Below, one piece after another: positions 9,006-18,272 of a stretch of DNA of 32,000 nt. Position numbers and translations under genes: made by a program. Origin of the DNA: Methanobacterium lacus (GTDB lineage Archaea; Methanobacteriota; Methanobacteria; Methanobacteriales; Methanobacteriaceae); assembly GCF_000191585.1 (NCBI RefSeq), contig NC_015216.1, forward strand, positions 2,235,557 to 2,267,556. The letters run 5' to 3'. Each line of letters begins with the position of its first letter. Position 1 is the stretch's first letter. Below the pieces are notes generated by a model. The model was not told the origin of the DNA, ran no database searches, and saw nothing but the letters and a program-made list of their open reading frames with translations.

Positions 9006-10145
9006 ATGAAGATACTTTTTATAGGCGCACGTTTGTTCGACGATGTAGCACTTTACACCAAACAAAATACAATTAAAACCATTATAACCGAATCTAATTC
9101 TGAATCACCAAATCTTAAACTTTCAGACCAATTTTTTGAAGTTTCGAGGGGAATGGAAGAACCCATGAAAATTGCTATTCAAGAAGAAGTTGATGGAGTG
9201 GTTCCCCTGATAGGTGTTGATGGTCCGCTTGTTGATGTTGCAAAGATGAAAGAAATCCTTGAAAAAGACCATGGCATCCCAGTAGCAAGTTCAGGTGTTA
9301 AAGCCGCTTCAATCTGTGCAGATAAAATTAAAACCAAACAATTCTTTGTTGATAACAGTATTGAAACCCCTGAATTTTTTAAACTCTCAAAAAACAACAA
9401 TGCTAATTTATTAACGAAACTACTATCTAAATCCCCAGTTGTGCTGAAACAGGGCAGTGGCCAGGGCGGATCAGGCATCAAAATCGTTTCAAAGTTTGAA
9501 GAAGTTGGAAACTACTTCGATGGCTTTGATGAAACATTGGCAGAAAAATTTCTGGAAGGGTACGAAGTATCCATCGAAGTATTGAGATGGAATGGAAAAA
9601 CCATTCCACTGGTTCCAGTTCACAAGGGAAAAACAACTATAAATGGTTTGCACCCCCTAAAAAAGGTTAAAAAAGCACCTCTAGATATTGATGGTGTTGA
9701 CAATGATTTAAATAACGAAGAGATCCGGAAAATAGCCATTAAAATTGCAGATACCCTCAATTTAGAGGGAACTGCCGACATCGACCTGATATTCGACATG
9801 AAAACCGGAAAAAATTATGTGATTGAAATCAATGCAAGGCCGAGCGGAACTCGCTACATAACTGGTGCTGCAACCAATGTTTATATCATGCAAGAACTCG
9901 TGAAGATGGTTTCTGGTGTGTGGGATCCCTCTGAACTAAGGGACAGGATCAAAAATTATTCTTCCATCGAAGTACCAGTTGGAAGTTACAGCTCTTCTAA
10001 GAACAACTACAAATTCAGGGAATTTAGTGGTGAAAATTCATGGATAATTCATGGTCCAGAAAACCATGAACGCATCACGATCAGGGGCGATTCAATGGCC
10101 AACGCAGTTAAAACTGCCGAGGATTTGAAAATTTTATTGGAGTAG
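9006..10145 (+). CDS. ATP-grasp family ligase (carbamoyl-phosphate-synthase/Ddl-like fold); probable pseudomurein peptide ligase
   Basis: ATP-grasp pattern: DKIKTKQFF..., VLKQGSGQGGSGIKIV (Gly-rich loop), EKFLEGYEVSIEVL, IEINARPSGTRY. First gene of the cell-wall cluster. Confidence 0.75.
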   Translation: MKILFIGARLFDDVALYTKQNTIKTIITESNSESPNLKLSDQFFEVSRGMEEPMKIAIQEEVDGVVPLIGVDGPLVDVAKMKEILEKDHGIPVASSGVKAASICADKIKTKQFFVDNSIETPEFFKLSKNNNANLLTKLLSKSPVVLKQGSGQGGSGIKIVSKFEEVGNYFDGFDETLAEKFLEGYEVSIEVLRWNGKTIPLVPVHKGKTTINGLHPLKKVKKAPLDIDGVDNDLNNEEIRKIAIKIADTLNLEGTADIDLIFDMKTGKNYVIEINARPSGTRYITGAATNVYIMQELVKMVSGVWDPSELRDRIKNYSSIEVPVGSYSSSKNNYKFREFSGENSWIIHGPENHERITIRGDSMANAVKTAEDLKILLE

Positions 10146-10254
10146 TACATCCATAGATATATATCAATCTAAAATTTATTGAAATAACAGTAAAAATTAT
10201 AACTTTATAAATGAATCTGACCAAAATTATCAAAATAGAGTCATAGGTGGTATC

Positions 10255-11328
10255 TTGAACAATTTTAACCTGGAAATCTTCATATTCTTACTCGCATTCT
10301 TATCAACTGCAATTTTCACGTATTTGGTTAAAAAATTCTTGAAGTATGCAGATGTAAAAGACAACCCGATAGTTACTGAACACAGCCATAAAGCTGGTAC
10401 ACCCACAATGGGCGGAATTGCCATTCTCATGGGAGTTTTGTTGATTGCATGTGTGTACTACACAAATTCACAGCTTGTTTTAACAGTTTTAATAATGATG
10501 GTTGCTGGTATTGTTGGTTTGATGGATGATCTAATAGGCCTCAAAACCAAGGAAATTCAGAAAGTTGTTATGAACAAGAGTGCTGAACCAGTTGAAATTG
10601 GAAGATTAACACTCAAAAACGGAGAAAACGCCAGAGTTACCACACCTAAAGCAAAAAAAGATCTTGAAGAGCTTCTTAGAACTGATAAAGTTGAAATCAT
10701 TGGTGAAGCACCTATAAAAAGTGAGATTAAAGAGAATGAAAAAATAGCATCCCAAATTTTGGTTTCACTCTTCTTAGTTGCTTCAGGAGCTGTTGGTGCT
10801 TCAGTTCTTGGTTTCAATATTGGATTGTTGATCATACCCGTGGTGATCTGTGGTATAGTTGGATCAATCAACTCAGTGAATTTGATAGACGGTATGGATG
10901 GACTCGCAGCTGGAATACTGGGAATAGCATCAATTGCTTCGGGACTTTTCGCATTTTCCAAGGGAAACCCAATGGGAGCATTACCATTTATAGTAATAGC
11001 AGGAACATGCTTCGGTTTCTTGGTGTTCAACAGATATCCTGCATCCATATTCATGGGAGACACAGGTTCCTTTGCCCTTGGTGCTGGATATATTACCGCA
11101 GCATTTCTTGGAGACGTCGTATACTTCGCAATCATAGCACTAGCAGTTCCAATAATATCCGTTATCATAAGCCTTCTTCACAGGGCACATGTCATCAAAC
11201 TGCCTGTTGAACCACTCCACCATACACTGCATTACAAGGGACTGTCCGAAAAGAAGATCGTGGCAGTTTACTGGGGAGCAACCATAGTAATTTCAGGTGC
11301 AGCACTCTTCATCTACAACGTGATCTAA
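10255..11328 (+). CDS. MraY-type polyprenyl-phosphate phospho-sugar(-peptide) transferase (pseudomurein MraY homolog)
   Basis: HKAGTPTMGG, MDDLIGLK, NLIDGMDGLAAG, FMGDTGSFALG and PLHHTLHYKG match bacterial MraY signature segments. About 10 hydrophobic helices. TTG start has AGGTGG at 10245-10250. Confidence 0.85.
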   Translation: MNNFNLEIFIFLLAFLSTAIFTYLVKKFLKYADVKDNPIVTEHSHKAGTPTMGGIAILMGVLLIACVYYTNSQLVLTVLIMMVAGIVGLMDDLIGLKTKEIQKVVMNKSAEPVEIGRLTLKNGENARVTTPKAKKDLEELLRTDKVEIIGEAPIKSEIKENEKIASQILVSLFLVASGAVGASVLGFNIGLLIIPVVICGIVGSINSVNLIDGMDGLAAGILGIASIASGLFAFSKGNPMGALPFIVIAGTCFGFLVFNRYPASIFMGDTGSFALGAGYITAAFLGDVVYFAIIALAVPIISVIISLLHRAHVIKLPVEPLHHTLHYKGLSEKKIVAVYWGATIVISGAALFIYNVI

Positions 11329-11357
11329 AAAAAAACTTAGAACATTTAGGGGATAAT

Positions 11358-12818
11358 ATGACAGAATTAACAACTTCCTATCTGGCCAATAAAATCGATG
11401 GAAAATTAACAGGGCCAGATATAGTTATTCAGGGAATTTTCACCTTCTTAAACCATGCAAAACCTGGAGATGCAGTTATTAGACATTGGATCGATGAAAA
11501 GGGTGTGGAAATAGCAAGAAATAGGGGTGTTTCATGTGTTGTTACTCAAAACCCCAAGGGTGATGCCGTGAAAACAGCACAAGAACTTGATTTTCCATTG
11601 ATAATCACCCCAAAAATTGAACTTGCCAATGCATTTGCACTCAGATGGTCCATTGAAAAATTTGCCCCTGGATCCATACGAGTGGTTGTAACAGGCACCA
11701 ATGGAAAGTCAACAACAACCCACATGATACAAAACATACTTAATCATGCAGGTTACAACTGTTACACCAACACAGATTCTAAATCTGAATTTAACACCTT
11801 GATTGACCCTGTTGTTTCTGATCAAATATCACGTTTCAAAGCAAAAACCAAAAAACCCATTGATGCAATGGTGGTAGAAGTTTCAGAAGTTCAGGGATGG
11901 ATGGATAAGCTCATGAAAGATCATGCTTACCTAATGACAGATGCAGTTAAACCAGATGTTCTGGTTCTGACCAACATAACCATGGATCATATTGGTCTAA
12001 TCAATTCCATTGAAGAAACCTACGCCGAGATATACGGAGCCCTGGCTGCAGTAGAAAAATCATGCCAAAATAACTACGCTGTTTTAAATTATGATGATCC
12101 GCTTCTAAGAAAAATGGCTGGAGAAATTGTGACCTGTCCAAGCATAATATCCCACGGTTCTGTTGAACCAGATTTTAATCCGGATCTAACTGTTAAATCC
12201 GACGGAATACACCATGAAGATGAACTGTTTTTAAAGATGGAAGATCTTCCATTTAAAAGTAAGCACTTCCTACAAAATACAATGGCAGCCATAGGTGCGT
12301 GTTTGGCACTGAACATCGATACCAGTGCCATAAAAGCTGGAATTTTGTCTTACAGTCCATTAAACAGAAGATTTTCAATTCTTTACCAAGAACCTTTGAT
12401 AATAGATGATTTCGCCCACAACCCCGACGGAATCACAGCAACCATTAAAAGCGCCTCTGAAATGTCTGAAGGCACCCTGATTATCTTGTTTGCAGTCCGA
12501 GGATCTAGGGGCGAAGTCATAAACCGTTTAAATGCAGAGGCACTTGCATCTGCCCTTCAAGCCGTTGATTACTCCCTGATTATTACAAGCAGTTCTGAAG
12601 TTGTTGACGAGTTGAACACTGTTCATGCCTCTGAAATTGAGGTTGTGAGGAAAGTTATGGATGAACATAAACTAGAACACACCTTCAAAGAAGAACTGGA
12701 AGATGCCCTAAATTACACCTTGAACACCGCAAAAAAGGAAGATACTATTCTATTAATTGGTGCCCAGGGAATGGATCCTGCTAAGGACATTTTAAACCGG
12801 ATAAAAGGTCCAGAATAA
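11358..12818 (+). CDS. Mur ligase family protein (MurE/MurF-like); pseudomurein peptide ligase
   Basis: P-loop VVVTGTNGKSTTTHMI, VVEVSE, LVLTNITMDHIG, DDFAHNPDG. The N-terminal domain resembles the MurF/MurE N-domain (LTGPDIVIQGI...PGDAVI). Confidence 0.85.
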   Translation: MTELTTSYLANKIDGKLTGPDIVIQGIFTFLNHAKPGDAVIRHWIDEKGVEIARNRGVSCVVTQNPKGDAVKTAQELDFPLIITPKIELANAFALRWSIEKFAPGSIRVVVTGTNGKSTTTHMIQNILNHAGYNCYTNTDSKSEFNTLIDPVVSDQISRFKAKTKKPIDAMVVEVSEVQGWMDKLMKDHAYLMTDAVKPDVLVLTNITMDHIGLINSIEETYAEIYGALAAVEKSCQNNYAVLNYDDPLLRKMAGEIVTCPSIISHGSVEPDFNPDLTVKSDGIHHEDELFLKMEDLPFKSKHFLQNTMAAIGACLALNIDTSAIKAGILSYSPLNRRFSILYQEPLIIDDFAHNPDGITATIKSASEMSEGTLIILFAVRGSRGEVINRLNAEALASALQAVDYSLIITSSSEVVDELNTVHASEIEVVRKVMDEHKLEHTFKEELEDALNYTLNTAKKEDTILLIGAQGMDPAKDILNRIKGPE

Positions 12819-12963
12819 AATTAATGAATTTAATACCCTATTTATTTTAAAATACACCCAATATCTGCCTAGTTTAAATCGTGGGGATCAGTTTTACTCA
12901 TTGTCATGGCCATTAGAATGAGAAATTGATAAGTACTACTTGGAAATAATACTTAGTAGATTA

Positions 12964-12975
12964 AGATTTAAATCT
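12964..12975 (+). promoter_or_regulatory. palindromic TATA-like element AGATTTAAATCT; candidate internal promoter of the cell-wall cluster
   Basis: Perfect 12-bp palindrome containing TTTAAAT, about 60 nt upstream of ATG 13032, inside the only large gap (213 bp) between the ligase genes. Confidence 0.35.
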
Positions 12976-13031
12976 GATTAAAAGAAATAATATGGATTAC
13001 AGTGTTTAAAAGATTCTTGTGAGAAATTGTT

Positions 13032-14444
13032 ATGAAGTGTTTAGTAATTGGTGCAGGTAATGCTGGAAGGCCCGTGGCAAGGATATTGAATTATGTTGGG
13101 AACAGCATCCTGATGACAGACAGAAAAAAAATGAATGAATTCCCTCAAAAAGTGCAAGAAACCCTAAAAATAATGGAAAATGAGGGTGTGGAATTAGCGT
13201 TTGATTTTGATAATTTTGAGAGTTTAAAATCTGAAGAAATTGAATATGCATATGTGGCCCCAACTGTGCCTCTGAATGCTCCGGTATGGGAGTTTTTAGC
13301 TGAGAAGAATATTGAGGTGTTGAGCAACGAATATATTTCAGATATCATCAATAAACAGCTTGAAATTGATACAATTGGGATAACAGGAACACTTGGAAAA
13401 ACTAGCACAACCCACACAGTGGCAGAAATTTTCAGAGCTGCAGGTTACAATGTTTGGTCGTGTTCTTCAAGGATGGGAAACCTGTTGAGCGAAGTGATTG
13501 TTGATGGAATAGTTAATGGACTTCATAAAAGCAACGATGTTGCCGTGCTTGAACTGCCCCATGGAACATCCAGGTTGATGTCCAAGGTGGAGCTCAAAGT
13601 GGGAATCATAACCAACATCTTTCCAGATCATCTTGACGAGTTCGATTATTCAATGGAGAAGTATGTTGAAAGGAAATTATTCATCACCCAATCCAGTGAA
13701 ATTCTTATTTCAGGTATTCAATGCAAGGAAAACATAGAATCATTCAGGGACGATGTCATTTACTACTGTCATGAGCATGAGCTTTGCAAGGTTCAGGGAA
13801 CTTTGGAAAATGGTCTGCTCAATATAAATTACAACATTCCAGAATTGGGATTGGAAGGTAATTTCAACACCCCATTCAAACTCAGGGGATACTACTTCGA
13901 TAATTCCATTGGAGCTGCAGCAGCAGCGCTTGCATACGGAATCAGCGAAGAATCTATAAAAAAGGGGTTATCTAATTTTAAAGGTATTGAAGGACATATG
14001 GAATACATTGGAAATTATAAGGACAGGGAAGTTCATTTTGATGCCGCCTTTGTACCTGCAGGACTTATAAATACCCTTGAAAGCTTTGATAGCGAGAATT
14101 TAGTTGTGGTGGTGGATAACCCTGACAGCACCAATCCTCGGGACAAGGTTAAGGTGGGTGAAGTCATTGGCAAATATGCTAAGGTAATAATCTGCAGCGG
14201 ATACAACGAAACAACTAAAAAGTTTGATGTGAAAGCAGCAAACGATGTTATTAAGGGGGCTCAAAAATCACCGGCTATAAAGTTAGCGACCGAAGACATG
14301 TTTGTTGCAGGAGAACTCGCAATCAAACACTCAGAACCAGGTGATATTGTAGTCCATGTTGGGCCTGGAGCCATCACCAACTACGATGATCTCAAATTTA
14401 AAATGATGTCAGGCATTAAAGAAGGGTGTAAAAAATATGATTAA
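13032..14444 (+). CDS. Mur ligase family protein (MurD-like N-domain); pseudomurein peptide ligase
   Basis: Rossmann-like N-terminus MKCLVIGAGNAGRPVARIL, P-loop IGITGTLGKTSTTH, VLELPHGTS, ITNIFPDHLDEF. Confidence 0.85.
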   Translation: MKCLVIGAGNAGRPVARILNYVGNSILMTDRKKMNEFPQKVQETLKIMENEGVELAFDFDNFESLKSEEIEYAYVAPTVPLNAPVWEFLAEKNIEVLSNEYISDIINKQLEIDTIGITGTLGKTSTTHTVAEIFRAAGYNVWSCSSRMGNLLSEVIVDGIVNGLHKSNDVAVLELPHGTSRLMSKVELKVGIITNIFPDHLDEFDYSMEKYVERKLFITQSSEILISGIQCKENIESFRDDVIYYCHEHELCKVQGTLENGLLNINYNIPELGLEGNFNTPFKLRGYYFDNSIGAAAAALAYGISEESIKKGLSNFKGIEGHMEYIGNYKDREVHFDAAFVPAGLINTLESFDSENLVVVVDNPDSTNPRDKVKVGEVIGKYAKVIICSGYNETTKKFDVKAANDVIKGAQKSPAIKLATEDMFVAGELAIKHSEPGDIVVHVGPGAITNYDDLKFKMMSGIKEGCKKYD

Positions 14445-15963
14445 CTCTGAAAACAGGCAGAAACCTGTTTACGGTGTGGTAGGAATCTGTGGAGTTGTTG
14501 GAAACCTAGTTTCCAGGATGTTGATGGACAAAAAATTCAGGGTTATGGGAACAGATATGAGCCCGGCCAAAGGATGCACATTTTTGTACACACTCGAAGA
14601 TTATGATTTTCCCAAATTCCTAGAAAACCATCCCGAATCATTTTTTAGTGATTCAGACATCATCATACCGCCACCCAGCCTAGGTGAAGATTCAGAGTTA
14701 TTCAAGCTAATTTCAGAACATGGCAATGATGTTATGACTGTGGATGATTGTTTAAACCAGTTTAAACCAGATAAACCAGTTCTGTGTGTCAGTGGAACCA
14801 ATGGAAAAACAACCACCACAACGCTGCTTAAACATATATGCCGAACTATGGACCTTAAACCAACGGAACATGGTTTCATCAAACTTCAAGGAAACATAGA
14901 TTACATTCCTCCACTGCAGGCCAGGTTGAAGGGAGATGTTGCAGTTCTTGAAACAGGAACCTTTGGAAACACTGGTGACCTGGAAATTATGATGAAACGC
15001 TGCGAACCTGATTGTGGTGTTTTAACAAATATTAACCCCGACCATCTGGATAAAACCCATGATTTTATTAACTACGCCCGGATCAAAGGAGAATTTGTGG
15101 ACTACTTCCAGAAGAAGAAACTCATCATCAACTCAGACGATCCAACAGTGTGGGGTTTGATAAAAAACCCAGATTCTGTGATAAAGTTTGGAGTGGATAC
15201 AACGACTGAAGATGTGGGTTACAAGGAATGCTGGTGTGGTAATGAAATTGAGATCAACGAAACAATAACAGGATCAGGCTACTACCAATGTGAATGTGGA
15301 CTCAAACGTCCCGAACCAGATTACCTTGCATTTGATGTTGAAGAATCTGAGGGAAGGTTCAAACTCAAAACACCAGATTCTGTTTTTGAAGTGAAAATGA
15401 AGCTCATCGGACTTCACAATGTTTACAATGTCACAGGTGCAATTGTGGCTGCAAGGGAATATTTCAACCTGCCCATGGACAAAATTCTCACTGCAGTTGA
15501 AACCTTTGAAGGGGTTTCCGGAAGAATTGAACATCTCTTCACCCATGAAGAAATGGAAGTTATCCTCGATTATGGACACAACCCCGCAGGAATTGAAACT
15601 GTTTTAAGAGAGCTTAAAAAGGTTTATGAAACCATAACAGTAGTTTTAACAGTTTCTTCCGAATCAGGTGAACATGGAGACGTGGAAATATTTGATAAAG
15701 TGTTGAAGTTTGGAGATTTCATAGTTCCAGCATCCCATGCATCCAGAGTAGTTGCAGAAACCAAGGTTGAAGAAATTGAATCTGGAAAAATTGTGCTGAC
15801 AAGTGAATCCGTGGTTAAATTCGATAAAACTGGAACACTCGGCGCAAGTTCAGACCAAGTGTTAGATGGGATGAAAACTGGTTTGAAATGTAAATCTTCA
15901 GCATTAATATGTCTTGGAGAAGCCGCATTCAAGTATAAAAAATCAATTTTAGAATTGAAATAG
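14437..15963 (+). CDS. Mur ligase family protein (MurC/MurD-like N-domain, CxC...CxC insertion); pseudomurein peptide ligase
   Basis: N-domain VYGVVGICGVVGNLVSRML...GTDM, P-loop LCVSGTNGKTTTTTLL, VLETGTFG, LTNINPDHLD, DYGHNPAG. The ATG overlaps the upstream stop (ATGATTAA). Confidence 0.85.
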   Translation: MINSENRQKPVYGVVGICGVVGNLVSRMLMDKKFRVMGTDMSPAKGCTFLYTLEDYDFPKFLENHPESFFSDSDIIIPPPSLGEDSELFKLISEHGNDVMTVDDCLNQFKPDKPVLCVSGTNGKTTTTTLLKHICRTMDLKPTEHGFIKLQGNIDYIPPLQARLKGDVAVLETGTFGNTGDLEIMMKRCEPDCGVLTNINPDHLDKTHDFINYARIKGEFVDYFQKKKLIINSDDPTVWGLIKNPDSVIKFGVDTTTEDVGYKECWCGNEIEINETITGSGYYQCECGLKRPEPDYLAFDVEESEGRFKLKTPDSVFEVKMKLIGLHNVYNVTGAIVAAREYFNLPMDKILTAVETFEGVSGRIEHLFTHEEMEVILDYGHNPAGIETVLRELKKVYETITVVLTVSSESGEHGDVEIFDKVLKFGDFIVPASHASRVVAETKVEEIESGKIVLTSESVVKFDKTGTLGASSDQVLDGMKTGLKCKSSALICLGEAAFKYKKSILELK

Positions 15964-16097
15964 TTTCTATGAAAAAAAATAATTACATTATGGCATAGTT
16001 TTAAATCTTTTAAAAATAATCTAATTAGATCAGATAAGATCAATAAACATATTAAATATTATAATTTCATATTTCAATGCACTGAAGGTGAATTAGA

Positions 16098-16538
16098 ATG
16101 TTCATAAAAATTAGGAGAGATACCTTAATAATTTTATTACTGGCATTCCTGCTTATATTTTCAGGGAGGGTCATGACTTACATGTCATATGCCTCATCAA
16201 CCACCTCTGATCAGGGAGTTCCAATTTCTGGTGTGATTGTTAAGGGTAACGATATTGTGCCATTAGATTCTATTAAAAATAGTATGGCAAATGTTGGTTT
16301 TAGATCAGGCAGTTACATCCAGGGAGATACTTTAGTCACGTCTAAGCGGCAAGTTCCCTTGAATGAAGCCATAGATAATGCTAAGCAAGCTGTTATGCTG
16401 ACAACGATACCAGGAACGCAGATCACGCCAATTGTTGCGGCCGATGTAGAAGTGGATAATTCAACAGGAATTGTTACAGTGAACGTGATTGAAGACTTCT
16501 CAAACATATACATAAAAGGGCTGAATGGAACATATTAA
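16098..16538 (+). CDS. small N-terminally membrane-anchored extracytoplasmic protein, POTRA-like ectodomain (hypothetical)
   Basis: GAAGGTGA SD upstream of the ATG. One TM helix (LIILLLAFLLIFSG). The ectodomain has the pattern ISGVIVKGNDIVPLDSIKNSM...GIVTVNVIED. Two N-x-S/T sequons. Confidence 0.6.
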   Translation: MFIKIRRDTLIILLLAFLLIFSGRVMTYMSYASSTTSDQGVPISGVIVKGNDIVPLDSIKNSMANVGFRSGSYIQGDTLVTSKRQVPLNEAIDNAKQAVMLTTIPGTQITPIVAADVEVDNSTGIVTVNVIEDFSNIYIKGLNGTY

Positions 16539-16551
16539 GGGGCTGAAATTC

Positions 16552-17811
16552 ATGAAGAGATCAAATTTAGTCGGAATTTTACTGTTCCTAATGACGGTCG
16601 GTATGTTGGTTCACACCTCTGCCGCTACAATGAACGTTGTTGTTATAACAGACCCTACAGGACAGGATCCAAACGGTGCTGCAGCAGGAAGTCAGTCCTG
16701 GGCAGAAAACATGTTCCAGTCCACATTCATCCTTTCAAAAGAAAAACATTTCTGTGTTCTCTCGGGTGGTGAGGGTAACGAAACCCCAAGGCTCGGTGCT
16801 ATTGTGTCAGCTGTGAACAACCTTGAAAATGGAGGAACAGCAGCTTCTGCAGCAACACTTGCAAATGGATTTTCAGGTATTAGGATCATGACTGGAGGAC
16901 CTACCATCGGTGCTGCTGTCGGAGGATACTTCTTAGCATACGTTGTGGTTGTTTCAGATAACGGTACCATCACCATAACTCCCTACAATGGAGGTTTAGC
17001 AGTTCTACCCCCCGGAACTAAGGGAGCTATTATTCACCTGAGAAACACTCCAGGTAACCCTCAGTACGGTACTGCAGATGCTGTGCGTCTACAAACAGCG
17101 GAAATGATGGGCCAAATGATACGGGATGGTTATCCTGCCACAGATGTGGTTGCAGCTGCATTTAAAAATGTTGCAATAAACGCCGGTGAAAAACATGGTG
17201 GAGGTGCTTTAAACCTTGTTTCTGGTATAACAACTGGGGACATGTTCACACCTACCGAATTAAACACCACTGGTTTTTCAATGGATCAACCCTACAGTAA
17301 GATCAGTGATAATGGTTGGAGTGTGGCGTATCCTGAGGCTGCGAATTATGAAGTCAGTCCAATTGATGGATCAAATCTTACAACGGTTTACGCATATCAA
17401 GCACTGCAAAATGCCATAACAGTGGATTCAAACACAACATCGGTAGCTGTTTATGGTACAGATGCACCGGGAGTTGCTTCAACAACCCAAGAAATAGTTC
17501 AGGCATCTGTTTCAAAACATGGTTTTAGTGGAACACAAATTGCAAAGGATATCAACAGCGCAATTTCAAATGGATTGCTAGTTGGGGTAAACAATGTTGA
17601 AGCCAGTGATATCAATGTGAATCAAAATCAAAAAGCTGTTGGTGTGTATTTCAAGGCACTGCCAGATGACAGATCATCCCCACCATGGAACCTACCAATA
17701 AGCTCAAACATACTGAACCTGTTGGGAAACATGCAAACTGCCATAGGAATAATTCTGGTGATACTGGTGTTGTTTAGAAGCACGTTAATATCATCCTTCC
17801 TAAAGAAGTAG
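16552..17811 (+). CDS. exported protein with N-terminal signal peptide and C-terminal TM anchor (hypothetical; possible Ntn-hydrolase-like domain)
   Basis: MKRSNLVGILLFLMTVGMLVHTSAA|T signal-peptide-like N-terminus. C-terminal helix AIGIILVILVLF plus a basic tail. Five N-x-S/T sequons. Gly/Ala/Thr-rich. The ORF-track start at 16525 (overlapping the upstream gene by 14 nt) is an alternative. Confidence 0.65.
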   Translation: MKRSNLVGILLFLMTVGMLVHTSAATMNVVVITDPTGQDPNGAAAGSQSWAENMFQSTFILSKEKHFCVLSGGEGNETPRLGAIVSAVNNLENGGTAASAATLANGFSGIRIMTGGPTIGAAVGGYFLAYVVVVSDNGTITITPYNGGLAVLPPGTKGAIIHLRNTPGNPQYGTADAVRLQTAEMMGQMIRDGYPATDVVAAAFKNVAINAGEKHGGGALNLVSGITTGDMFTPTELNTTGFSMDQPYSKISDNGWSVAYPEAANYEVSPIDGSNLTTVYAYQALQNAITVDSNTTSVAVYGTDAPGVASTTQEIVQASVSKHGFSGTQIAKDINSAISNGLLVGVNNVEASDINVNQNQKAVGVYFKALPDDRSSPPWNLPISSNILNLLGNMQTAIGIILVILVLFRSTLISSFLKK

Positions 17812-17891: not shown

Positions 17892-18272
17892 ATGGCATTA
17901 ATTTTAATAAGAGCAGAAGACCAAAGTAAACTTTTAAACACCCTCGCAGATATCGAGAGACATGCTGGCCTGAAAATTAGTGGTAAACCCAGGATCATGG
18001 ATTCAAAAAAGGCAGATAACATAGCAACTAAAATTTTGAAACAAAAGATAAGATCCAGATCAGCCATAGCAGTTCTTGTGAAGGTGGTTGACGACACAAC
18101 CAAGAGCATAGTTCACATCAGAAAAATACATCCACCAGCACATGTAGTGGTCATAAGCGAGGAATATGCGGAATTTAAAGAATTAGAAGCTAATTTCAAT
18201 AAATTAAGTCCCCTGAGAGGATATTATTCCCATAAGAGTGAAAAATCTTCTGATTCTAAAAAAGAAGATTGA
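17892..18272 (+). CDS. hypothetical cytoplasmic protein (126 aa)
   Basis: AGGAG SD 8 nt upstream of the ATG. Normal Lys/Glu-rich composition. The competing antisense ORF 17774..18109 has a Leu/Ser/Phe-rich, antisense-like composition. No family recognised. Confidence 0.55.
   Translation: MALILIRAEDQSKLLNTLADIERHAGLKISGKPRIMDSKKADNIATKILKQKIRSRSAIAVLVKVVDDTTKSIVHIRKIHPPAHVVVISEEYAEFKELEANFNKLSPLRGYYSHKSEKSSDSKKED

Follow-up and report, generated by a model that had tools for sequence, protein, structure and literature searches.

What does the small exported protein encoded directly after the Mur-type ligases of Methanobacterium lacus do, and what kind of domain does it carry? Pseudomurein is, to our knowledge, the sole peptidoglycan-like wall in archaea, and we know of no proteins assigned to its late extracellular steps, for which transglutaminases have merely been postulated. 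We analyzed a stretch of 32,000 nucleotides (nt) of M. lacus DNA (contig NC_015216.1; hereafter the window, whose first letter is position 1) in which a cluster of pseudomurein ligase genes is followed by a gene of the Mfer763 family at 16098 to 16538 on the forward strand. A first-pass annotation, made from the letters of the sequence, had described the product as a membrane-anchored protein with a POTRA ectodomain like that of FtsQ/DivIB and BamA, and had tied it to pseudomurein synthesis. This description was partly supported: a POTRA-like fold and the linkage to pseudomurein stand, with caveats, whereas membership in the FtsQ family does not. The fold is a first functional clue for Mfer763; it does not make Mfer763 an FtsQ.

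The gene is the Methanobacterium member of the Mfer763 family

The open reading frame (ORF) is confirmed in the sequence as it had been annotated (16098 to 16538, + strand, ATG start, 146 amino acids [aa]), and the residues quoted at the time (ISGVIVKGNDIVPLDSIK, GSYI, AIDNA, and VEVDNSTGIVTVNVIE) are correct. A Shine-Dalgarno-like GAAGGTGA, read directly at 16084 to 16091 on the + strand, lies 6 nt 5' of the ATG, and the start residue is common to 80/80 orthologues from other genomes, which align from residue 1; we therefore take 16098 as the start. In an NCBIfam profile search, the window protein matched NF053641, the Mfer763 family, with an E value of 1.2 × 10−70 and 236 bits against a curated cut-off of 170, its residues 1 to 137 falling on profile positions 1 to 137 of 137. 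The gene is the Methanobacterium orthologue of the already catalogued Mfer763 (OG0001162), and both the gene and its linkage were known before. It is a member that shows no difference from the family in its full-length hidden Markov model (HMM) match, its size, its place after pMurE/pMurC and before Mfer764, or its restriction to the Methanobacteriales and Methanopyrales.

Work by Subedi et al. (2021; PMC10117817) listed Mfer763 as the "Con Pro" gene of cluster 2 and described Mfer763 and Mfer764 as two highly conserved transmembrane-domain proteins that are always downstream of pMurE, have no homology to annotated proteins, and are possible de novo archaeal inventions. A 2025 pangenome study (PMC11915815) gave Mfer763 (OG0001162) a Sec signal peptide by SignalP and no domain, gave Mfer764 (OG0001472) one transmembrane (TM) segment and no domain, and found the Mfer763 family confined to the pseudomurein-bearing orders. 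In the searchable literature, we found no POTRA, Ntn, AlphaFold, or structure-based annotation of either protein; one study that employed AlphaFold had the Mur ligases as its sole targets. The fold assignment of Mfer763 and its pairing with an Ntn-like neighbor appear to be new here.

The ectodomain is modeled in the order of a POTRA domain

We built an AlphaFold2 (AF2) model of full-length Mfer763 from a 52-sequence alignment. The mean predicted local distance difference test (pLDDT) score was 82.7, with values of about 88 to 94 across the ectodomain (residues ~41 to 133). Following an N-terminal helix (residues 7 to 32) and a linker of low confidence, the model contains strand b1 (45 to 49), helix a1 (56 to 66), helix a2 (88 to 100), and strands b2 (112 to 119) and b3 (125 to 132); the connector at 69 to 87 (G-F-R-x-G-S-Y-I-x-G) was drawn as three very short strands. 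The predicted order, beta-alpha-connector-alpha-beta-beta over ~90 residues, is the b-a-a-b-b order of POTRA domains. On the basis of the model, of Foldseek, and of profile matches to BamA POTRA2, we place the POTRA-like ectodomain at residues 43 to 133 (16224 to 16496, + strand). The ectodomain that had been picked out by eye (16224 to 16493, residues 43 to 132) coincides with the folded part of the model, which runs from strand 45 to 49 to strand 125 to 132.

A Foldseek search of the model against the PDB returned POTRA proteins in 46 of the 50 best matches, among them CdiB, many BamA entries, TamA, and Anabaena Omp85. The four others were Dot/Icm chains with root mean square deviations (rmsd) of 14 to 19 Å. 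The best superpositions were with Escherichia coli YaeT (2qcz_A; probability 0.97, rmsd 2.6 Å over 94 columns, and TMq 0.41) and with TamA POTRA1 as an isolated domain (2ly3; TMt 0.52). The TM-scores normalized to the full 146-aa query (up to 0.41) understate the fit at the level of the domain. The POTRA order proposed from the letters is that of the model, and the Foldseek matches, borderline in E value, point the same way.

Family profiles find BamA POTRA2

The single window protein said little when it was searched with phmmer against PDB sequences, where BamA was the best match at an E value of 0.1, a result unusable alone but in line with what followed. Family profiles, run against 177,635 PDB sequences, gave a clearer signal. 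A profile of 52 Mfer763 members had four matches at E values of ≤10, all of them BamA POTRA2 (best E value = 1.7 × 10−4), and a more diverse profile of 42 members that included Methanopyrus had seven, again all BamA POTRA2 (best E value = 9 × 10−5, domain i-E = 0.0014). The alignment of the 42-member profile to Acinetobacter baumannii BamA covers the whole domain (query 43 to 124 against BamA 71 to 149). The reversed-sequence control gave one unrelated match (E value = 0.59) and no BamA, so composition is not the explanation for the BamA matches, and the pattern that had been read by eye goes beyond chance. Furthermore, hhalign aligned the family over b1-a1-connector with an alignment of the five E. 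coli BamA POTRA domains (P value = 2.5 × 10−4); its alignment with the single E. coli BamA sequence was weak (P value = 0.0032). Among the members' weak Pfam matches, PF07244 was the commonest in the set of 52 (3/52) and was level with DUF2633 in the set of 42 (4/42), its best E value being 0.028. As judged from these comparisons, the relation to bona fide POTRA domains is detectable, marginal but specific.

We then compared Mfer763 with the Omp85-type POTRA domains (PF07244; BamA POTRA2, TamA, and the TpsB proteins CdiB and FhaC), which supplied its best structural and profile matches, BamA POTRA2 being the closest in sequence. The two share the predicted b-a-a-b-b order over ~80 to 90 residues, an I-x-G-x-x-[IV]-x-G-N start, a G-x-x-x-G connector after helix 1, and a V-x-V-x-V-x-E end. 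They differ in that the Mfer763 domain is a single copy rather than part of a tandem array, in that the protein ends at residue 146 without the 16-stranded beta-barrel of Omp85/TpsB (no PF01103 match), and in that its host has no outer membrane. Mfer763 also differs in lying below the Pfam threshold and in having invariant motifs of its own.

Several points weigh against the assignment. The fold is a prediction, and the best Foldseek E value was 0.09 (CdiB 6wim), with none at ≤0.001. In hmmscan, the window protein had no Pfam match even at an E value of ≤10, and PF07244 stayed below its gathering threshold in every member tested; the comparison with Pfam POTRA families therefore did not bear out the domain. 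The probability of the five-POTRA hhalign alignment was just 43%, most of the sequence signal lies in the domain's first half, and the family alignment has little depth (Neff about 2). No statistic is better than borderline by itself, and it is their agreement that carries the conclusion; the picture as a whole is built on a predicted structure and borderline statistics. In addition, the most invariant motifs of the family, G67-x-R69-x-G71-S72-x-I74-x-G76 (GxRxGSxIxG), I-P105-G106-T107 (IPGT), and E132-D133-F (EDF), are family specific and stand outside the POTRA consensus; their conservation probably marks an interaction or ligand site.

These points leave room for another explanation, in which the POTRA likeness is convergent or too generic and Mfer763 is a small exported alpha/beta protein specific to its lineage, e.g., a pseudomurein-binding module or a chaperone or inhibitor of Mfer764 that acts like a pro-domain. 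Borderline similarity statistics throughout and family-specific motifs would be expected under it, and the suggestion of a de novo archaeal invention (PMC10117817) is in line with it. However, 46/50 structural matches and 7/7 profile matches fall on one domain family whose share of the PDB is far below 1%, the control with reversed sequences gave none, and the alignment with A. baumannii BamA is in register across the whole domain. Moreover, the neighboring Mur ligases and MraY share ancestry with bacterial dcw genes (PMC10117817), so that a bacterial-type domain at this place is not far-fetched. We regard convergence as unlikely. That the ectodomain of Mfer763 has a POTRA-type fold is, in our judgment, highly probable; that it is a remote homologue of the Omp85-type POTRA domains is a reading we favor with less assurance.

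The N-terminal helix may be an anchor or a signal peptide

The N-terminal segment (residues 1 to 32; 16098 to 16193, + strand) may be a signal-anchor or a cleavable Sec signal peptide, as judged from the AF2 helix and from conservation. It holds the single hydrophobic N-terminal stretch TLIILLLAFLLIFS of the protein. A basic n-region (K4, R6, and R7) is followed by a hydrophobic core (9 to 22) and then by G23-R24...Y28...[S/A/G]30-[Y/F/W]31-A32, with S33 as the next residue. Residues 1 to 34 match the folded domain of the protein in conservation, with mean top-residue frequencies of 0.82 to 0.91 compared with 0.60 for linker residues and 0.42 for those of the tail. A signal peptide that is simply discarded would not usually be so well conserved, which suggests that the helix has a function. 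At the same time, all 82/82 sequences have S, A, or G at position 30 and Ala at position 32, and position 33 is occupied by S, T, or A. By its residues, this stretch (30 to 33) is a textbook −3/−1 signal-peptidase site, and it is retained even in Methanopyrus. Together with the published SignalP call of a Sec signal peptide (PMC11915815), the invariant site suggests that Mfer763 may not stay membrane anchored. The protein may be retained by its N-terminal helix, or it may be cut by signal peptidase and held through its partner alone. Thus, of the membrane anchor claimed in the first-pass annotation, the one N-terminal hydrophobic helix stands, and its retention as an anchor is one of two possibilities.

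We also observed that the N-terminal helix of Mfer763 (16098 to 16199) and the C-terminal helix of Mfer764 (17704 to 17805) are both conserved about as well as the folded domains, which hints at a specific helix-helix contact or at contact with a different membrane protein, e.g., MraY or a flippase. The exported part of Mfer763 carries two N-x-S/T sequons, NST at residues 121 to 123 (16458 to 16466) and NGT at residues 143 to 145 (16524 to 16532). In other genera, the C-terminal tail is variable and rich in Asn, Ser, and Thr; together with the sequons, this makes N-glycosylation possible.

Mfer763 lacks sequence and domain features that define FtsQ/DivIB

Could Mfer763 be the archaeal counterpart of FtsQ/DivIB, that is, a bitopic divisome organizer tying septal pseudomurein synthesis to division, with an inherited gene position (murC/ddl, then ftsQ)? 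On the surface, the two architectures resemble each other: a short N-tail and one hydrophobic helix precede one POTRA-like domain outside the membrane, and the helix is highly conserved, as expected of a functional anchor. The gene stands near Mur-type ligase and ddl-like genes, and its position after pMurC recalls the ddlB-ftsQ-ftsA order of E. coli, which we checked. In hhalign, the helix end and b1-a1 align in register with FtsQ residues 38 to 92, but with a P value of 0.059 and a probability of 0.9%.

Sequence and domain features of the FtsQ family gave a different answer. E. coli FtsQ was left unscored by the family HMM with all filters off (--max), under which BamA POTRA2 was scored; PF08478, the POTRA_1 family of FtsQ/DivIB, was matched by no Mfer763 member in the sets of 52 and 42; and the 50 best Foldseek matches included structures of neither FtsQ nor DivIB. 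Mfer763 is about half the size of FtsQ (146 versus 276 aa) and ends 13 residues past its domain, which means that the FtsQ beta-domain (FtsQ_DivIB_C, PF03799) is absent. This beta-domain binds FtsB/FtsL (DivIC/FtsL). Neither ftsA, ftsZ, and sepF nor FtsL/B-like genes were found among the scanned window ORFs of at least 100 aa, and the genes downstream of Mfer763 are Mfer764 and DUF356 rather than ftsA/ftsZ. Furthermore, the conserved signal-peptidase-type site may remove the helix. PSI-BLAST searches by Subedi et al. turned up no orthologue of FtsQ, FtsL, or FtsW among these archaea (PMC10117817), which also counts against such a counterpart. Membership in FtsQ/DivIB fails on the tested defining features, and the assignment to that family is not supported, the similarity being to the Omp85/BamA-type POTRA (PF07244) and not to POTRA_1. 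We consider an FtsQ counterpart quite improbable; a looser functional analogy, with a POTRA module organizing a wall enzyme, is possible.

The family is linked to pseudomurein genes in both orders

Next, we looked into the distribution of the family. A scan of species-representative genomes yielded 210 genomes with an Mfer763 relative, all of them of Methanobacteriales type, and 80 loci were kept; Methanopyrus carries a relative as well. The closest relatives of the window protein, from Methanobacterium, were 98% and 97% identical in amino acid sequence. A word-indexed search gave 568 relatives, every named one of which was Methanobacterium or Methanobacteriaceae, and an exhaustive phmmer search of 1.84 billion representatives gave just 27 clusters at 50% identity. 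Most of these were fragments of family members, and one came from Methanopyrus. Another, P0147, is a repetitive, low-complexity protein of 861 aa that reached an E value of 4.8 × 10−4 to Mfer763 via six repeats; it was rejected as repeat-inflated noise. As far as these sequence searches reach, the family is narrow and restricted to pseudomurein methanogens.

Linkage to Mur ligases was counted over 77 informative loci, three further loci being too short to tell. A Mur-type ligase lies directly upstream of Mfer763 in 70 loci (pMurC in 48 and pMurE in 22), and two more have partial ligase matches ~0.5 to 0.9 kb upstream, giving ~72/77. In Methanopyrus sp. SNP6, Mfer763 and Mfer764 come after genes for a Mur ligase, ATP-grasp, GT4/MraY, and another Mur ligase, in that order; the Mfer763 protein there is 43% identical to the window protein, and its start codon abuts the stop of the ligase. 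The proposed tie to the pseudomurein ligase cluster was thus borne out in both pseudomurein orders, and the family is neither absent from nor unlinked in the other pseudomurein genomes.

The five remaining loci have no ligase within 4 to 8 kb upstream and speak against a fixed tie to the cluster. They come from termite-gut lineages, namely Candidatus Methanovirga spp. and a Methanobrevibacter (L064, L068, L071, L078, and L079), and none of them has a Mur ligase, MraY, or Ddl-like gene within that distance; the Mfer763-Mfer764-DUF356 unit is thus separable from the ligase cluster. That Mfer763 is an exported protein merely beside the cluster and unrelated to the wall, as these five lineages and the 134-nt AT-rich gap between pMurC and Mfer763 in the window might suggest, is very improbable, given a family found solely in pseudomurein-bearing orders, directly after a Mur ligase in nearly all informative loci, and abutting one in Methanopyrus.

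Mfer764 is the constant neighbor of Mfer763

The Mfer764-family gene encodes 419 aa at 16552 to 17811 (+ strand) and matched NCBIfam NF053642 with 673.7 bits against a cut-off of 560. Its longest ORF begins at 16525, overlapping the Mfer763 stop; the start is most likely the ATG at 16552, as in most orthologues. Mfer764 follows Mfer763 directly in 80/80 loci, and likewise in Methanopyrus. From the stop of Mfer763 to the start of Mfer764, the median distance is 3 nt, with an overlap in 32/77 pairs and a distance of ≤30 nt in 68/77. The two genes are the tightest unit of the locus. A few pairs in metagenome-assembled genomes (MAGs) of Methanobrevibacter/Methanovirga stand unusually far apart, by 724 nt in L074 (8450 to 9175) and by 197 and 159 nt in L071 and L078; an insertion, a fault of assembly, or a wrongly called start may account for these gaps.

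The AF2 model of Mfer764 had a pLDDT of 77, which rose above 90 over residues 90 to 210. The protein has an N-terminal signal sequence, a domain resembling N-terminal nucleophile (Ntn) hydrolases in the model and in Foldseek (residues ~26 to 225, within 16552 to 17811, + strand), and a C-terminal helix (residues ~385 to 418; 17704 to 17805, + strand). This helix was modeled with low confidence (pLDDT mostly <50) and is strongly conserved in sequence; we read it as a TM anchor. Foldseek matched Mfer764 to circularly permuted human taspase-1 in seven entries (E values of 1.4 × 10−5 to 3.7 × 10−5, probability 1.0) and further to DUF1028 (2imh; probability 0.99, TMt 0.52), penicillin V acylase, and GlmS. 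All of these are Ntn-hydrolase folds. In the permuted constructs, which are the best matches, the nucleophile Thr comes first in the chain. In Mfer764, the site [A/S/V]-[S/A]-A is followed by T-x-N-[V..]-I-I-T-D-P; Ala occupies −1 and Thr occupies +1 in the 37/37 sequences that cover it and in Methanopyrus. Cleavage by signal peptidase at this A-x-A site would therefore expose an invariant N-terminal Thr (Thr26; 16627 to 16629, + strand) at the start of the first strand.

As in the Ntn-hydrolase superfamily (taspase/type-2 asparaginase, DUF1028, and penicillin V acylase), Mfer764 has a predicted alpha-beta-beta-alpha core and an invariant Thr at the predicted mature N terminus, where the first strand begins. 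It differs in that activation would be by signal-peptidase cleavage, not autoproteolysis, and in its extra C-terminal domain and TM anchor; a match at the sequence level is missing, and catalysis is putative. Two points weigh against an Ntn assignment: the sequence searches of Mfer764 found no Ntn signal, and the fold is a structural lead that comes from one AF2 model plus Foldseek. With this proviso, Mfer764 is a candidate for a pseudomurein amidase or transpeptidase that works outside the cell.

Most Mfer764 orthologues also carry two Cys-Pro-x-Asp-Gly knuckles (PYSKVCPxDGW...YQTCPxDGT) with weak zinc-ribbon Pfam matches. At ~17293 to 17376 of the window (residues ~248 to 275), both knuckle cysteines are Ser (PYSKISDNGW...YEVSPIDGS), and the window lineage would thus have lost a metal site or disulfide.

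Mfer763 as a proposed docking subunit in pseudomurein assembly

In every pseudomurein lineage that we examined, one exported protein with a POTRA-type domain and one Ntn-like ecto-protein are encoded side by side, in many cases with codons that overlap, and mostly just downstream of the genes for the cytoplasmic ligases and MraY. The extracellular cross-linking enzymes of pseudomurein are described as unidentified (PMC10117817). On balance, we lean toward a reading in which Mfer763 serves as a docking subunit of POTRA type, acting together with Mfer764 at the stage of pseudomurein assembly that takes place outside the cell. Mfer763 would be made together with Mfer764, from genes that overlap or lie a few nucleotides apart, and we infer that the two form a complex on the membrane's outer face. 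Mfer764 would be an ecto-protein held by its C-terminal TM helix, with an Ntn-like N-terminal half whose Thr is exposed by signal-peptidase cleavage. The POTRA-type domain would serve as a docking or scaffold module, its partner being bound by edge-strand (beta-augmentation) contacts. Docking by POTRA edge strands is established elsewhere, for BamA with BamB/BamD and for TpsB proteins with their substrates. Mfer764 would in this way be held or positioned by Mfer763, as might the nascent wall peptide, and the conserved membrane helices of the two proteins could pair. The pair would then serve late wall steps, in the processing or cross-linking of exported precursors. The proposed complex derives from adjacency, and adjacency is itself compatible with independent functions of the two proteins, which weighs against this reading.

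A bolder version, which we consider improbable at present, would make the pair the missing extracytoplasmic machinery itself. Mfer764 would be an Ntn-type transpeptidase with a Thr nucleophile, forming an acyl-enzyme, as in gamma-glutamyl transpeptidase, to cross-link or trim exported stem peptides; Mfer763 would be an ancient POTRA scaffold from the bacterial dcw-type ancestor of the Mur ligases and MraY. If true, this would be an archaeal functional parallel to the control of wall synthases by the FtsQ family.

Mfer763 and Mfer764 are the two cluster genes that are kept in all pseudomurein methanogens without any annotation, and, with the POTRA and Ntn-like assignments, two "hypothetical proteins" would become candidates that can be tested for a role in cross-linking or processing of the wall. 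A POTRA-type Mfer763, if confirmed, would, as far as we know, be the first POTRA-like domain to be connected with a pathway in archaea; it would also be one more bacterial-type part of the cluster and so bear on the question of its dcw-like origin. Moreover, the two proteins are possible inhibitor targets in rumen and gut methanogens.

Organization of the surrounding locus

Upstream of Mfer763, the pseudomurein cluster spans 9006 to 15963 on the + strand. It consists of a Ddl-like ATP-grasp gene (9006 to 10145), an MraY-like gene (10255 to 11328), pMurE (11358 to 12818), pMurD1 (13032 to 14444), and pMurC (14437 to 15963). Each was identified by an NCBIfam equivalog match above cut-off and by Pfam (ATP-grasp for the Ddl-like gene, GT4 for the MraY-like gene, and Mur_ligase for the three ligases). 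pMurD1 and pMurC overlap by 8 nt (14437 to 14444), and pMurE is separated from pMurD1 by 213 nt (12819 to 13031). Given this overlap, the 213-nt gap, and the AT-rich gap before Mfer763, the cluster may be divided into several transcription units.

Downstream of Mfer764 lies a DUF356 gene (17892 to 18272, + strand; Pfam PF04009, E value = 4.7 × 10−38) for a protein of 126 aa with no TM segment. This conserved neighbor is found downstream in 69/70 Methanobacteriales loci with enough sequence and is not adjacent in Methanopyrus. Its product looks cytoplasmic, and it may be a third member of the Mfer763-Mfer764 unit. Finally, a MAG labeled "Methanomicrobiales archaeon" (L046; JBNGDB010000017.1) holds a complete pseudomurein cluster with Mfer763 and Mfer764 at 63 to 70% identity; its label is probably a taxonomic mislabel or a case of mis-binning and not a sign of pseudomurein genes outside the Methanobacteriales.

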